From NCBI GenBank assembly GCA_963699155.1, contig OY969414.1, forward strand, positions 1,259,757 through 1,323,756: DNA of 64,000 nucleotides. The letters run 5' to 3'. The DNA comes from an uncultured Chlamydiales bacterium. Lineage in GTDB: Bacteria; Chlamydiota; Chlamydiia; Chlamydiales; JAAKFR01. The notes below the pieces were generated by a model, which did not search any database, was not told where the DNA came from, and was given only the letters and a program-made list of their open reading frames with translations. Positions 36,604-45,402 of the stretch are shown piece after piece. The translations under genes were made by a program, and so were the position numbers. Within the stretch, counting starts at the first letter, position 1. The number at the start of each line of letters is the position of its first letter.

Positions 36604-38208
36604 TCAATTATTTATCGAAATAAGACTGGCTCGGGAAAAGTCGATGGCGCCGATTGAGTCGATGGTATAGCCGGACAGGGTAGGGGAGTGGGCGAAGAGG
36701 AGGCGATCGCTGCAGATGGGGATGACGGGCATCTGCTCGAGCAGGATGAGCTCGGCTTCACTGAGTAGTTGGGTCCTTTTGGAGCAGTTGGATTCTTGCT
36801 TGGCTTGAGCTATTTTGAGGGCAAAGTCGGAGTTGAGCCAGCGGCAGAAGTTGGAGGGGTTGAGGCTGGTATAGCGTTCGAGAAGCTCGAATGGATCTTT
36901 GTAGAAGGCGCCTTCGTAGGCCATGCTGATGGTGTAGAGCCCTTTTTCTAAGTTACTGCGCAGAACATTCCATTCGACAGATTTGAGACGGATGTCGATA
37001 CCGAGCTCTTTTTTCCACGTCTCTTGGAGATACTCAGCGAGCTGTTTACGAGGGGATTGTTGGGAATAGCTGATTTCGAGAGGTGGCAGCGTTTCACGGG
37101 TGTAGCCCGTTGAAGTGAGCCAGTACTGGAAAAGCTCATGAGCACGTTCACGGTTTTCTTCGATACGGAAGGGATGGAGAATAGGGAGAAGTTGGTTTGA
37201 GAGTGGTTTGAGAGAGGCTTCGCCTCCCAGAAGAATATGGTCGGTAATGGCCTGTCGATTGAGAGAGAGGCTGAGAGCATAGCGGATGTAAGGTGATGCG
37301 AGGAGGCTATTTTCATTGTTTAAGAAAATCCAGAAAGAGCGGCCGATGGGATGCGAGCGTAAGAGCTCTTGCTTCTGAAGCTGCTGGATCAGCACTGCAG
37401 AAAGTGGGCAGAGTGGGACTCCCACCCAATCGACCTCACCCTTTTCAAAGAGGGAATAAACGGTGGTCGTATCTTCGATGAAGCTGATGGAAATCTCTTC
37501 GAGTAGCACATGCGCATGGTCCCAATAATGGGGATTGGGAAGCAGTCTCATCGAGTTTCCTTTTTTCCACTCAGCCACTTGGAAGGGACCATTGAACAGG
37601 ATCTCTGAGTGGTTTTCAGGGTCGACGAGGGGAGCGGCGATCGCCTGAGCCATCAGATCGAGGAAAGTAGGACAGGGATATTCGAGATCGACAATGAGGG
37701 TCAGATCGTTCACGACATGGACGCCGAGATGATCGAGAGGAAGCACCCCTTTTTTGACTTTTTCGCCATTGGCTAAAACGTAGAGGAGCTCTGCACGCGA
37801 GCAGGTCGAGGAGGGCTTCAGCGCGGCTTTCCATGCTGTGGCATAGTGGTGGGCTGTGACAGGAGTTCCATCGCTCCAGTGATTGGGCCTTAAAGTAAAG
37901 GTGTAATGGAGCTGGTCGTCAGAGATGGAAACAGTTTCTGCACCTGCAAGCTCAGCCTTCCCTTCTCCGTTGATGCGGGTTAAAGGTTCAAAGAGAGTTT
38001 TGGCAAGTGAGAGACCACGGAGATAGATCACCAGATCGTGAGGATGGAGGGAAGGAAGGTCTCCTTCTTGAAAGTTGATCTTTAATGTATGGTTTTCTCG
38101 CTCTCGCTTTTGGTGACATCCTGCAGCGGTCAGAAGAATCAAAAAAGCAAAAATAAAAAATGGAGTCGCCTTGGTAAGGCCGCAGAAACGAGGTCGAGAC
38201 CATCTCAT
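36604..38208 (-). CDS. Family 5 solute-binding lipoprotein (OppA-like)
   Basis: Lipobox TAAGC; LFEPLTR, WSDGTPVTA, NGPF, EQMPVIP. Confidence 0.9.
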   Translation of the reverse strand: MRWSRPRFCGLTKATPFFIFAFLILLTAAGCHQKRERENHTLKINFQEGDLPSLHPHDLVIYLRGLSLAKTLFEPLTRINGEGKAELAGAETVSISDDQLHYTFTLRPNHWSDGTPVTAHHYATAWKAALKPSSTCSRAELLYVLANGEKVKKGVLPLDHLGVHVVNDLTLIVDLEYPCPTFLDLMAQAIAAPLVDPENHSEILFNGPFQVAEWKKGNSMRLLPNPHYWDHAHVLLEEISISFIEDTTTVYSLFEKGEVDWVGVPLCPLSAVLIQQLQKQELLRSHPIGRSFWIFLNNENSLLASPYIRYALSLSLNRQAITDHILLGGEASLKPLSNQLLPILHPFRIEENRERAHELFQYWLTSTGYTRETLPPLEISYSQQSPRKQLAEYLQETWKKELGIDIRLKSVEWNVLRSNLEKGLYTISMAYEGAFYKDPFELLERYTSLNPSNFCRWLNSDFALKIAQAKQESNCSKRTQLLSEAELILLEQMPVIPICSDRLLFAHSPTLSGYTIDSIGAIDFSRASLISINN

Positions 38209-42519: not shown

Positions 42520-45402
42520 TTAACCCTCCTCAAAGTAAATCCATTTAAAATCCACATCGCCAGATTGGCAGAAATGGATCCCTTTCACTTCGCTGCGTGC
42601 GAGATAATGGTAAGAAACGCCATGGATGGGAATCACAGGCATCTGATCCAGTAGTTCCAGCTCAGCTTGTTTCAGATAGGAAAGGTCGTGGGGGGCAGAT
42701 CTCGCTTGGTCGATCCAATAGTTGAATTTTTCGCTATGCCAGCCGAATGCATTATGAATGTTGGTTGTCTCATAAAAGATTTGAAAGAAGTACATCGGGT
42801 GGTGGTAGAAGGGATGGCGGTAACAAGATCCGAAGTGAATCAACCGGTTGTCTAACTGGTGAGAAAAGGTATTCCAGGTCTCTTCGACGCGACGGATTTG
42901 GATGCCAAAGATCTCTTGCCACTGTTCTTGAATCTCGATCGCTAGCTCCTTTTGTCCGGGGATGTGGGAGTGGAGCAGCCTTAATTCTGCAATTTGAGAG
43001 CGGTGACAGTCGGTTTCACGTAAGCCCTCCTCAAAGAGAGCGATGGCTAGATCGGGATTAGGAGCCTTGTAGAGCTCCTCCTCTTTGAGCTGAGAGATGG
43101 AGGTGGGCAGATGGGTCTTGAGTGGGGTTGGGTAAAGGAGAGTGCGCTGACAGAGAAGATCACGGTCTAGGGCTATCGAAAGGGCTCGGCGCACCTTTGA
43201 AGAGGAAAAGAGCGGGTGTGCCAGGTTGCAATAGAGCCACGAGACACCCAGATCGTCGACACGGGTCATCTGATCTTTCAAGGAGTGGGCAATCTGAGGA
43301 GGAAGCAGACTAAAAGGGCCGCCGATCCAATCCAGATTCCCACTTTGGTACTTTTCGTAGGCTTGGTGAGGATCGCGGATGATGGAGATTTCGATGCCCT
43401 CCAACTTGACATGCTCGAAGTCCCAGTAGTAGGGGTTTTTAATGAGGACGATATTCTGATGGCGTTGCCAGGAATGGAGGGTGAAAGGGCCGCAAAAGAC
43501 ATAAGGTTCTCCAGAATCCTCATAGGCGGGGAAAAAGAGAGGGTGGGCCAACATTTCGAGGAAATAGGGAGCTGGATGCTCGAGGGTGACTTTGAGGGTG
43601 TGTGCGTCGAGCGCTTTGACTCCGATATCATCGATATGAGCCAGCTTGAAGTGAGCTTTCCGGGCATTTTCCAGAATATAGAAAAAATCTGGCCGCAAAG
43701 AGGAGGGAGATTGAACCGCCTTTTTCCAGGTTTTCTCATACTGAAAAGCAGTGAGCTCTTCTCCGTTAGACCATTGGAGCTGTTTGAGTTTGAAGAGATA
43801 GGTTTTGCCATCTGGGGAGATGGTCACCTCTTGGGCGGCAGCGAGTTCCGGAATTCTTTTAGGAGAGATGCGCATGAGGCCTTCAAAGAGCGCTTTCTGT
43901 ACAGAACGGCAGCGCAGGTCAAGACCGATATGAGGATTTAAAGAGAGCGGGTCGCCGTCTAGATAATTGATCCTTAAGAACTTCTTCTCCTGTTTGGGCG
44001 AGTCGTGCGCATGGGATAACAGGAGTTGGATCCGATCGAGCCAGGCGCTACTTGTCGGGTATTGATAGACAAGCCCTAGGTAATATTCCCCATTGATGCA
44101 TTGATCTGTATAGCCAAATTGGTGGAGGGGGAAGGAGAAGTTCATCACCTCTTTGATCACGCGCTCTTTCAGATGTTCGAGACGGGTTTTGATGACCACC
44201 ACGGAAAAAGAGGGTTCATGATGTTTGAGCATTTCGTAGGGCTGGGAGGCAGAAAGCGAAGATTTCTTGGCCTCTAGAAAGAGCGAGGCGCACAATTTGC
44301 CCGCTTCGGGAAGAATAAAGGTTTGAAAGTGGGAGGGCTTGAAGGCGTAGAAGAGGGACTCAAGGAAGGATTTATCGCCATTTCCGACGATTTCTTGAAT
44401 GGCCCTGAGCTGTTTATGCTGTTTCGAGAAGAGGCCCCCATTATAATCGCGGAATTCCCCGATCATCAATTCGATTCCTTTAGCCACGTAGAGGCGCGCC
44501 TCTCGCAGATCGATGGAGCTGTTTTTGCGTGCAAAGAGGCTGCTATCGACCTCAAATAGGGTGATATTTGCCTGTTTGGTATGCTCTTTATCGAAGGTGC
44601 CGATTTCAGCCGTCATCTCAGGGATAAAATGGGTCGTATGGGGCAGCAATCTGCTGAGATCTTTCAGAGAAGGTGCGCTCGATTTGACAAGACGCACCAC
44701 GACGACAGAAAAGCGAAGACTCCCTTTCGGGGTCTGCTCCTGGAATGAGATCGTCACCTGAGGCAGGTCATTGGTTTGATGAAACTCTCGACTCATCTGC
44801 ACAATATTGCGGAAGATCTCTTCCTCATTGCGGATCAAAAAGAGTGAGGGAGAGTAGCATTCGACATTCTCCTCCAACTCTTTTGGTAGATAGGTGCGCA
44901 GCTGTTGCAGGTCTGCAGCCGAGAAACCGCGTCCCCGCTTTTTTTCGATCTCCTGATAGAGAAAGAGAAGACCTGCTTCATCATCGCGGTAGTGATATTC
45001 TCTCTCAGGCACAGCCGCTATACCGGGGATGATGTGGAGGATTGCTTGAAGAAGCCTCTCTTGAGAGAGGAATTCGGTATTGCTGCTTACCTTGATGGCG
45101 ATGGCAATCCCTAACGAACTCGTTTCCGCTTGCTGTGTTTTAAAGAGGCGAAAAAAGAGGGTGCGCTGTTGCGGCGAAATCAGCTTTTGCACGGCAAACT
45201 TCTGTTCGAAATAACAAAATGCGTTCACCAGCTTGGTCAAGAAATAGAGCGAGTGTTGCTCACGAAAAGCGAGGGAGCTTGTGGAAAGGAGACGGATGCC
45301 CTTTTCCAGATTCTCTGAAGAAAGGCAATACTGGTGCCTTTTCCAGTAGTTTGAGAATTTCTGAATTTCCTCAAAAAAGTTTCGAGTCATGTCAAATGCC
45401 AA
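42520..45402 (-). CDS. Signal-less fusion: ~470-aa unknown (ACT-like?) region plus family 5 solute-binding domain
   Basis: Paralogue of 38205-40949 (FRDYNGGLF, LP.V.I.FQEQT); OppA motifs in the C-half. Confidence 0.85.
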   Translation of the reverse strand: MAFDMTRNFFEEIQKFSNYWKRHQYCLSSENLEKGIRLLSTSSLAFREQHSLYFLTKLVNAFCYFEQKFAVQKLISPQQRTLFFRLFKTQQAETSSLGIAIAIKVSSNTEFLSQERLLQAILHIIPGIAAVPEREYHYRDDEAGLLFLYQEIEKKRGRGFSAADLQQLRTYLPKELEENVECYSPSLFLIRNEEEIFRNIVQMSREFHQTNDLPQVTISFQEQTPKGSLRFSVVVVRLVKSSAPSLKDLSRLLPHTTHFIPEMTAEIGTFDKEHTKQANITLFEVDSSLFARKNSSIDLREARLYVAKGIELMIGEFRDYNGGLFSKQHKQLRAIQEIVGNGDKSFLESLFYAFKPSHFQTFILPEAGKLCASLFLEAKKSSLSASQPYEMLKHHEPSFSVVVIKTRLEHLKERVIKEVMNFSFPLHQFGYTDQCINGEYYLGLVYQYPTSSAWLDRIQLLLSHAHDSPKQEKKFLRINYLDGDPLSLNPHIGLDLRCRSVQKALFEGLMRISPKRIPELAAAQEVTISPDGKTYLFKLKQLQWSNGEELTAFQYEKTWKKAVQSPSSLRPDFFYILENARKAHFKLAHIDDIGVKALDAHTLKVTLEHPAPYFLEMLAHPLFFPAYEDSGEPYVFCGPFTLHSWQRHQNIVLIKNPYYWDFEHVKLEGIEISIIRDPHQAYEKYQSGNLDWIGGPFSLLPPQIAHSLKDQMTRVDDLGVSWLYCNLAHPLFSSSKVRRALSIALDRDLLCQRTLLYPTPLKTHLPTSISQLKEEELYKAPNPDLAIALFEEGLRETDCHRSQIAELRLLHSHIPGQKELAIEIQEQWQEIFGIQIRRVEETWNTFSHQLDNRLIHFGSCYRHPFYHHPMYFFQIFYETTNIHNAFGWHSEKFNYWIDQARSAPHDLSYLKQAELELLDQMPVIPIHGVSYHYLARSEVKGIHFCQSGDVDFKWIYFEEG

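Follow-up and report, generated by a model that had tools for sequence, protein, structure and literature searches.

A duplicated gene pair in an uncultured Chlamydiales bacterium combines an OppA fusion lacking an export signal with an exported OppA-like protein and may act in peptide sensing

Four genes at positions 36,604 to 45,402 of a 64,000-nucleotide stretch from an uncultured Chlamydiales bacterium (GenBank assembly GCA_963699155.1, contig OY969414.1; the whole stretch is called the window below) are best explained as two diverged copies of a two-gene unit that is conserved in environmental Chlamydiota. Each copy encodes a fusion protein, in which an N-terminal module precedes an OppA-type binding domain, and a shorter OppA-like protein with an export signal. 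The best explanation for this arrangement, which we put forward tentatively and rate a little short of an even chance, is that a cytoplasmic fusion of the module with OppA and the exported OppA of an Opp importer work together, and that the fusion exerts allosteric feedback on the uptake or use of peptides. The folds of the building blocks are known, and what is undescribed is the way in which they are combined and paired. Literature searches, which were aimed at chlamydial Opp and SgrR-type proteins and not at ATP-binding cassette (ABC) importers at large, returned no description of the fusion, of its module, or of the non-canonical chlamydial aspartokinase that carries the same module.

The gene cluster and the location of its products

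According to the open reading frame (ORF) listing, the gene order on the minus strand is fusion, exported OppA-like protein, fusion, exported OppA-like protein. Fusion A (P0001; 42520..45402, minus strand) is 960 amino acids (aa) long when read from a TTG codon and 956 aa when read from the ATG at 45390, which is probably the start used because the orthologue in the related locus L021 is 956 aa long and starts at the equivalent residue. Its N-terminal module (residues about 1-478; 43969..45402, minus strand), a homologue of that in fusion B, was recognized with our own hidden Markov model (HMM) of the N-terminal domain (residues 4-478, E 3e-106), and its OppA-type family-5 binding domain (42520..43968, minus strand) was recognized with the Pfam family SBP_bac_5 (residues 521-882, E 4.6e-55) and with our own SBP HMM (residues 482-959). 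Exported OppA-like protein A (P0002, 518 aa) is encoded at 40963..42519 on the minus strand. Fusion B (P0003, 914 aa; 38205..40949, minus strand) likewise consists of the module (residues 1-445; 39615..40949, minus strand) and a family-5 binding domain of the OppA type (38205..39614, minus strand; Pfam residues 484-830), and exported OppA-like protein B (P0004, 534 aa) lies at 36604..38208 on the minus strand. The two fusions are 30% identical over 907 aligned columns (E 1e-99).

The junctions between these genes are short. The TAA of fusion A is followed at once by the ATG of OppA-like protein A (0 bp), a 13-bp spacer separates the latter gene from fusion B, and fusion B and OppA-like protein B share a 4-bp ATGA overlap. 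Together with the Shine-Dalgarno-like sequences GAGGAGGG and AAGGAGGA ahead of the starts of the two lipoprotein genes, these junctions suggest that the four genes are tightly, and probably translationally, coupled. The original prediction, made from the sequence of this stretch alone, had listed the four coupled ORFs with exactly these spacings and with sizes of 960, 518, 914 and 534 aa. It had also listed motifs common to the fusions. Four of these (E.EK.RG.G.S, N.EE.FR, SI.L..AR.Y.AK and FRDYNGGLF.KQ) are carried by both proteins, whereas LP.V.I.FQEQT is intact in only one of them and is replaced by LPHISITFQEQT at that place in the other. The motif L.I.F..G...S..PH does open all four binding domains as described, with one substitution in each fusion (Y for F in fusion A, L for I in fusion B).

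Signal peptides were called from hydropathy profiles (Kyte-Doolittle values of at least 1.6 over 19 residues). Each of the two short proteins opens with a hydrophobic stretch that ends in cysteine (LFAAC in protein A, LTAAGC in protein B), in keeping with the lipoprotein nature proposed for them in the original prediction. Neither fusion has a 19-residue segment that reaches this threshold, and hence neither has a transmembrane-like segment; a hydrophobic N-terminus was likewise found in 0 of the 150 best representatives of the fusion and module family. A hidden signal peptide farther upstream is impossible, because each ORF was opened at the earliest start codon that follows a stop. The simplest reading of the fusions and their 150 relatives, in which a hydrophobic N-terminus is lacking throughout, is that the fusions are cytoplasmic, which is the location that had been proposed.

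Export of the fusions without a Sec signal, by type III secretion or by another route, would instead make them accessory periplasmic binders or host-directed proteins. The fold of the binding domain is normally extracytoplasmic, according to the available part of PMC8050422. The family is also multiplied in some genomes, as might suit such a role. Many large proteins that lack Sec signals are secreted by chlamydiae, yet type III substrates usually start disordered, whereas the N-terminus of the module is predicted to be an ordered helix from residue 2 onward, with predicted local distance difference test (pLDDT) values of 96-98. Because the same module is also fused to aspartokinase, an ATP-using cytoplasmic enzyme, and because the fusion gene is coupled to that of a separately exported OppA, we consider export of the fusion to be very unlikely.

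The N-terminal module

The module (residues 1-445 of fusion B) has no sequence match in Pfam, NCBIfam or the PDB. A phmmer search of 1.84 billion cluster representatives recovered a family of 604 representatives at E<=1e-3, of which 457 reached E<=1e-10, and the best 150 of the 604 were sorted by architecture with our own HMMs. The module was joined to a complete OppA domain in 52 of the 150, and in 17 more a N-terminal extension of ~180 aa preceded this combination. The OppA domain was partial in 14 (truncated records), the extension and the module occurred without any OppA domain in 36, and the module stood alone in 31, many of which are probably fragments. Near-invariant positions, in the numbering of fusion B, are Y136, E138, F174, N178, E180, R282, G294, R297, D298, N300, G301 and G302. 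The polar cluster among them (E138, N178, E180, R282, R297, D298 and N300) is a candidate amino-acid site. As a separate observation, the ~180-aa extension is conserved in many relatives of 1130-1170 aa and of 620-710 aa (e.g. P0065, P0067; L072:9323-11362); its consensus is FF..M...WL.PG, neither Pfam nor NCBIfam matches it, and it contains no hydrophobic stretch.

Public records name relatives of the fusion "peptide ABC transporter substrate-binding protein", which would fit an ordinary OppA whose additional N-terminal region arose as an artefact of annotation or assembly. This candidate was ruled out: the reading frames are maximal, the module is modelled at pLDDT 91 and is 68-74% identical to its counterpart in L021, and the same architecture is present in 69 of the 150 best representatives and, on independent contigs, in 62 intact ORFs.

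The structure of the module of fusion B was predicted with AlphaFold2 from an alignment of 148 sequences, and the model reached a pLDDT of 91.3 and a predicted template-modeling score (pTM) of 0.70. It begins with a bundle of four helices (residues 2-67) that has no significant fold match of its own, and a helical linker (residues 302-362) lies between units 2 and 3. The model supports, as a high-confidence prediction, a tandem and predicted three-fold arrangement of ACT-like units. In a Foldseek search of the PDB the top matches were chains A and B of 7jsr, the 180-kDa glutamate dehydrogenase of M. smegmatis (E about 6e-7, the best being 5.6e-7; probability 1.00, 506-512 columns). The global template-modeling score (TM-score) of this match was 0.23, with a root-mean-square deviation (rmsd) of 20.7, and the match is therefore local, with the domains differently arranged. 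Cryo-EM entries of the same dehydrogenase were recovered as well (9hv0 and 9hv5 at probability 0.99-1.00 over 163-165 columns with rmsd 5.6-6.7, of which 9hv0 has 165 columns at rmsd 5.6; 9hv6 at 0.87), and the next match after the dehydrogenase entries had a probability of 0.60. When both paralogues were searched with a protein language model, the family's own unnamed chlamydial clusters appeared at 0.92-0.94, and the only named clusters were families of the glutamate dehydrogenase N-terminal region at 0.75-0.87, which serve as leads only. The structural matches suffice to assign the module the same kind of predicted fold as the dehydrogenase segment; homology is not claimed.

The available part of PMC8175468 describes the N-terminal segment of the M. 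smegmatis dehydrogenase as three ACT-like domains of the same topology and proposes that they are metabolic sensors. The modelled module lacks the canonical ACT topology of beta-alpha-beta-beta-alpha-beta and has the variant that was termed "ACT-like" in the large dehydrogenase. It is ACT-like by predicted fold and not a member of the ACT family, because sequence and profile matches to ACT or GDH_ACT models are lacking: in Pfam, no ACT family was found at E<=10 for the two window modules, and no ACT, GDH_ACT or GDH_HM match was found in 58 family members at E<=1. Comparison of the module with the ACT regions of nine canonical aspartokinases by hhalign gave a probability of 0.07. Comparisons by hhalign among the three predicted units, and among the helical parts, gave probabilities below 1%, so that the repeat is visible in the model only. 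The original prediction of an ACT-like N-terminal region is thus upheld by the tandem units of the model and by a best Foldseek match that is a known ACT-like regulatory segment. Its more specific comparison with the C-terminus of GlnD is not, since there was no ACT or GlnD match in Pfam or NCBIfam and no GlnD entry among the Foldseek matches listed.

In terms of known systems, one of the nearest comparisons is with the segment of the large NAD-glutamate dehydrogenases that is covered by GDH_ACT1-3 and GDH_HM1-3. In both cases the segment lies N-terminal to the domain that it would control. The differences are that 0 of the 58 module members match the dehydrogenase profiles, that the dehydrogenase has a PAS domain where the module model has only the helices at 302-362, and that the module is attached to a binding protein or an aspartokinase, not to a dehydrogenase, and appears to be confined to Chlamydiota.

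The attachment to aspartokinase was seen in P0125, in which an aspartate kinase catalytic domain comes first (residues 1-248, corresponding to positions 1-249 of several aspartokinase models) and is followed by the extension and then by the module. A search with P0125 recovered more such proteins, and 17 proteins were tested with our own HMM. The module was present in 11 of 11 proteins that have an AA_kinase domain and no ACT domain in Pfam, eight of which have the whole module and three only the part from about position 160 onward, with the RDYNGG region kept; it was absent from all three canonical aspartokinases with ACT Pfam domains that were tested. The module-bearing chlamydial aspartokinases are P0125, P0244-P0247, P0257, P0267, P0274, P0290, P0292 and P0300, one of which is called "Aspartokinase" by NCBI. 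Because the module stands where aspartokinase otherwise has its feedback-sensing ACT domains, it is most simply read as a ligand-sensing regulatory module, and because aspartokinase is an ATP-dependent biosynthetic enzyme of the cytoplasm, a cytoplasmic location of the module is supported as well. The likeness to the ACT regulation of aspartokinase is that of an alpha/beta regulatory module that is attached to the enzyme or stands in for its ACT part.

These enzymes raise the question of whether the fusion might be a regulatory subunit of amino-acid biosynthesis, with the module docked on aspartokinase and the OppA domain reporting imported peptides (e.g. cell-wall peptides that contain lysine or diaminopimelate), so that the aspartate pathway is shut down when peptides abound. 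An interaction between aspartokinase and a separate module is suggested by their fusion in cis in the 11 clusters (Rosetta-stone logic), and the 36 of 150 representatives that combine extension and module without a binding domain fit this role. MppA, a binder of murein tripeptide (PMC8050422, available part), is among the closest relatives of the binding domain that have a solved structure, and the chlamydial Opp system is reported, in the available part of PMC9928106, to import peptidoglycan-derived peptides for recycling in the cytoplasm. The genomic context points elsewhere: neither the window nor any of the 19 scanned loci has an aspartokinase gene close to the module, and the conserved neighbour is an exported OppA, joined in one subclade by oppBCDF. 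We therefore regard regulation of aspartokinase as a quite improbable function of the fusion.

Binding domains, gene pairing and surroundings

SBP_bac_5 (PF00496) was the only Pfam family found in the four proteins of the cluster, with one domain in each (145-212 bits, compared with a gathering threshold of 32.4). The NCBIfam scores were 103-191 bits, far below the equivalog cut-offs of 393-1098 for OppA, MppA-like PRK09755, DppA, NikA and GsiB; against the OppA equivalog they were 103-162 bits compared with 947. Residues 5-466 of the 469-aa fusion B domain align, in two stretches, to residues 30-525 of B. subtilis OppA (8are, E 4e-58). When a profile of the family was compared with the PDB, 115 sequences were matched, all of them binding proteins, all through positions 427-928 and none through the module, and the best matches were B. 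subtilis OppA (8are, E 6.6e-108), DppE (8ay0, 1e-90) and MppA (3o9p, 3.5e-69). The likeness to OppA, MppA and DppE is in the full-length family-5 fold, the export signals of the short genes and the presence of relatives in opp operons; the fusions differ from them by the missing export signal, the additional 445-aa module and the distance from the equivalog cut-offs.

The fused binding domain looks functional. Column conservation was correlated between 64 fused and 47 exported domains (r = 0.74), and 38 columns were conserved in both sets, five in the exported set only and none in the fused set only. Identity between the window and L021 was 74-78% for the binding domain and 68-74% for the module. 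Domains of family 5 bind peptides, murein tripeptide, nickel, sugars and other ligands, according to the available part of PMC8050422.

A binding domain that is complete and as conserved as the exported ones would also suit a cytoplasmic acceptor or buffer, which would take up peptides as they emerge from the permease and either retain them or pass them on to peptidases or recycling enzymes, while the module only oligomerises or tunes affinity. The available part of PMC8175468 reports that ACT-like units 2 and 3 of the large dehydrogenase form subunit contacts, which is the kind of role that the module would then have. The pairs are multiplied within genomes (at least 10 loci in one metagenome-assembled genome and 7 in another), a pattern suiting substrate diversity, and in L009 a gene for an M3 oligopeptidase lies ~3.4 kb from the pair. 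Soluble acceptors in the cytoplasm are not known to us from ABC import, a point at which no literature search was aimed. The near-invariant polar residues E138, N178, E180, R282, R297 and D298 point to ligand-dependent regulation instead, and the use of the module in place of the aspartokinase ACT domains points to regulation and not to a passive scaffold. An acceptor is therefore an unlikely reading of the fusion.

Relatives of the module in other genomes were located by scanning for one pattern, [FI]RD[YFC]NGGL[FL], and 98 confirmed relatives were found in 75 loci. This pattern is biased towards the fused clade and passes over most of the forms that stand alone (consensus GGM), so that the taxonomic range obtained is a lower bound. 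By NCBI label, 48 of the 75 loci belong to Chlamydiota, eight to "Verrucomicrobia", and 19 have no phylum label. Of the "Verrucomicrobia" loci, L005-L007 are nearly identical to L008 of Candidatus Acheromyda pituitae, which NCBI places in the Rhabdochlamydiaceae. The labelled loci thus appear to trace to Chlamydiota, as at least this one set of those labelled "Verrucomicrobia" does, and the nearest relatives of the fusion come from Chlamydiota metagenome-assembled genomes (MAGs). At L002:8435-12718 and L024:5668-8405 the module genes are broken into several ORFs by apparent frameshifts or decay, and some copies may for this reason be pseudogenes.

Pairing was counted for 62 intact fusion ORFs, two from the window and 60 from the loci. 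An OppA gene with a signal peptide lies directly downstream on the same strand of 28 of the 62 (gaps -161 to +328 nt, often with an ATGA overlap), a convergent one was found for seven, and five have no room downstream. Hence 35 of the 57 fusions with room are followed by, or convergent with, an exported OppA. In three Anoxychlamydiales loci the exported OppA is followed by a protein of the extension-plus-module type. The pair is multiplied in some genomes, with ten loci in the MAG MFD01065_ilm_asm_bin35 (L015-L017, L019, L020, L022, L023, L034, L038 and L052) and six in P01_B01_bin.69 (L025-L028, L037 and L039). In P01_B01_bin.69 and a relative (L029, L035 and L036) the exported OppA gene converges on the 3′ end of the fusion gene, and the 3′ ends overlap in most cases.

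For linkage to Opp genes, 142 neighbouring ORFs from 19 loci were scanned with Pfam, and all loci were searched by phmmer with the Opp proteins of L018. In L018 (8135-15940) the order is oppB-oppC-fusion-OppA-oppD-oppF, an unusual order in which the fusion lies between the permease and the ATPase genes. The genes oppB and oppC lie just upstream of the pair in L010, and oppD and oppF just downstream in L012 and, on the other strand, in L014. Because the pairs of this subclade adjoin oppB/C, oppD/F or both, the system is probably tied to an Opp importer encoded elsewhere in those genomes where the pair stands by itself. The earlier statement that no permease accompanies the cluster is accurate for the window, in which neither BPD_transp_1 nor an OppD/F-type gene was found among the 44 ORFs scanned with Pfam, but it does not extend to these four loci.

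The window pair and the syntenic pairs of L001 and L021 sit between rsmE and the pyruvate kinase gene with no permease nearby, and L021 is the closest relative, with 68-78% identity for all four proteins and an identical four-gene layout and flanks. The only ABC_tran matches among the scanned window ORFs are UvrA and an ABC-F-type fragment at 63267. The gene content of the window is like that of a chlamydial genome, with genes for a V-type ATPase, UvrA, a Pkn-type kinase, pyruvate kinase, a lipid A acyltransferase, dacA-ybbR and cydAB. The dacA (c-di-AMP synthase) and ybbR pair (49484-51501, minus strand) lies ~4 kb upstream of the cluster on the same strand, with genes for a glycosyltransferase, the lipid A acyltransferase and rsmE in between, and a 163-aa ORF with no Pfam family lies directly downstream of the cluster, also on its strand. 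Five sizeable ORFs with no Pfam match at E<=1e-3, which encode 163-687 aa, are at 33202-35265 (plus strand) and, on the minus strand, at 30196-31224, 26264-27541, 54719-56062 and 36042-36533. The uvrA gene (20670-26252, minus strand) encodes 1860 aa, roughly double the usual length, and both the UvrA interaction domains and the ABC domains of the protein are duplicated. Two adjacent paralogous genes for small outer-membrane beta-barrels (OMP_b-brl) lie at 9394-10182 and 10243-10989, both on the minus strand.

ARAGORN called an 89-nt tRNA-Gly(TCC) at 37798-37886 (plus strand), antisense inside the gene for the 534-aa OppA. This call is probably a false positive, since Rfam shows no tRNA there at the gathering score; the Rfam scan of the window returned 0 families. 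Scans for promoters and terminators were at or near the level of chance (6 found vs 8.0 expected, and 18 vs 12.3, respectively).

Possible role of the fusions

If the fusion is a cytoplasmic feedback device, the exported OppA would deliver peptides to an Opp permease encoded elsewhere in the genome, and the fusion would stay in the cytoplasm, where its complete OppA domain, with its export signal lost, would bind a peptide-type ligand. The module would bind a small metabolite, probably an amino acid, in the conserved pocket around the RDYNGG loop, and the fusion would act by protein contact as an allosteric feedback device on the uptake or use of peptides. We infer the sensor or feedback role, both ligands and their binding, and the output from these arrangements. 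A cytoplasmic reader of peptides would have something to read, because chlamydial Opp is reported to import the peptidoglycan-derived peptides mentioned above.

The mechanism proposed here has analogies in the trans-inhibition of ABC importers, in the action of MlaB on MlaF, and in the feedback inhibition of aspartokinase. Trans-inhibition of ModBC and MetNI through regulatory domains is described in the available part of PMC4245157, and MlaB is described as a separate cytoplasmic regulator of the ABC ATPase MlaF in that of PMC7367683. With the MetN C2 domain and ModC the fusion shares the notion that the imported substrate is sensed from within the cytoplasm. The module differs from these in that it is not an ACT-family member by sequence and is not part of the transporter ATPase, and the putative sensor would be a whole second OppA domain, for which no report was found in the searches on chlamydial Opp and SgrR-type proteins. 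SgrR and DsvR offer another comparison, in which a family-5 domain with no export signal serves as the intracellular ligand-sensing part of a one-component protein. The original prediction was right to cite SgrR as a precedent for a cytoplasmic family-5 domain. SgrR, however, has an N-terminal DNA-binding domain and its output is transcription, whereas the fusions have an ACT-like partner and no match to a DNA-binding Pfam family, and the fusion gene is paired with an exported paralogue, unlike that of SgrR.

Several results weigh against the proposed feedback role. The fusions contain no output domain, SBP_bac_5 being their only Pfam match, and the signal-peptide calls come from hydropathy and not from a dedicated predictor. 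The low global TM-score of the dehydrogenase match, the lack of any ACT, GDH_ACT or GDH_HM match in the 58 family members, and the low hhalign probability against aspartokinase ACT regions all count on the same side, and the sensor role of the ACT-like domains of the dehydrogenase is itself a proposal only, both in the available part of PMC8175468 and in a later preprint. No exported OppA neighbours 22 of the 57 fusions with room, mostly those of the ~1000-aa Parachlamydiaceae type, and the module of the Anoxychlamydiales loci is not fused to any binding domain. Opp components lie beside the pair in only four of the 75 loci, all of one subclade, and for the window, as for most relatives, family membership is the only link to Opp.

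The relationship between the inside and outside binders is a further point of this kind. Identities among the binding domains of the window are 33-41%, with no preference between partners. In a FastTree phylogeny of 111 domains and a quick IQ-TREE phylogeny of 54, type-A fused and exported domains group together with a Shimodaira-Hasegawa-like approximate likelihood-ratio test (SH-aLRT) value of 100, and the placement of L015, L016 and L019 differs between the two trees. An approximately unbiased (AU) test of a single clade of fused domains, a group that was named after the tree had been viewed, did not reject it (p-AU 0.077). A matching of the inside and outside binders is thus not established.

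The feedback reading can be taken further, to a two-sided device in which an exported OppA supplies the Opp importer from outside, and the cytoplasmic fusion of OppA and a dehydrogenase-type triple ACT-like module reads both the imported peptide and the amino-acid pool, and gates the importer ATPase or aspartokinase by direct contact. This form of the idea is rather unlikely. If it were true, the fusion would be a one-component nutrient sensor whose output does not involve DNA binding, and no ABC importer would previously have been known to have a binding-protein subunit that is soluble and cytoplasmic.

Chlamydiae live on peptides and amino acids derived from their hosts, and little is understood of the way in which they sense the supply within their cells. 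The family described here comprises 604 representatives, often with several copies per genome, which public records label simply as transporter binding proteins, and half of every fusion lacks annotation. Should the fusion be a feedback sensor in the cytoplasm, it would represent a novel mode of control over ABC import and amino-acid synthesis, and aspartokinase and OppA would be two further natural contexts for the dehydrogenase type of ACT-like segment. In the aspartokinase fusions, enzyme activity provides a direct read-out by which the ligand of the module could be found.

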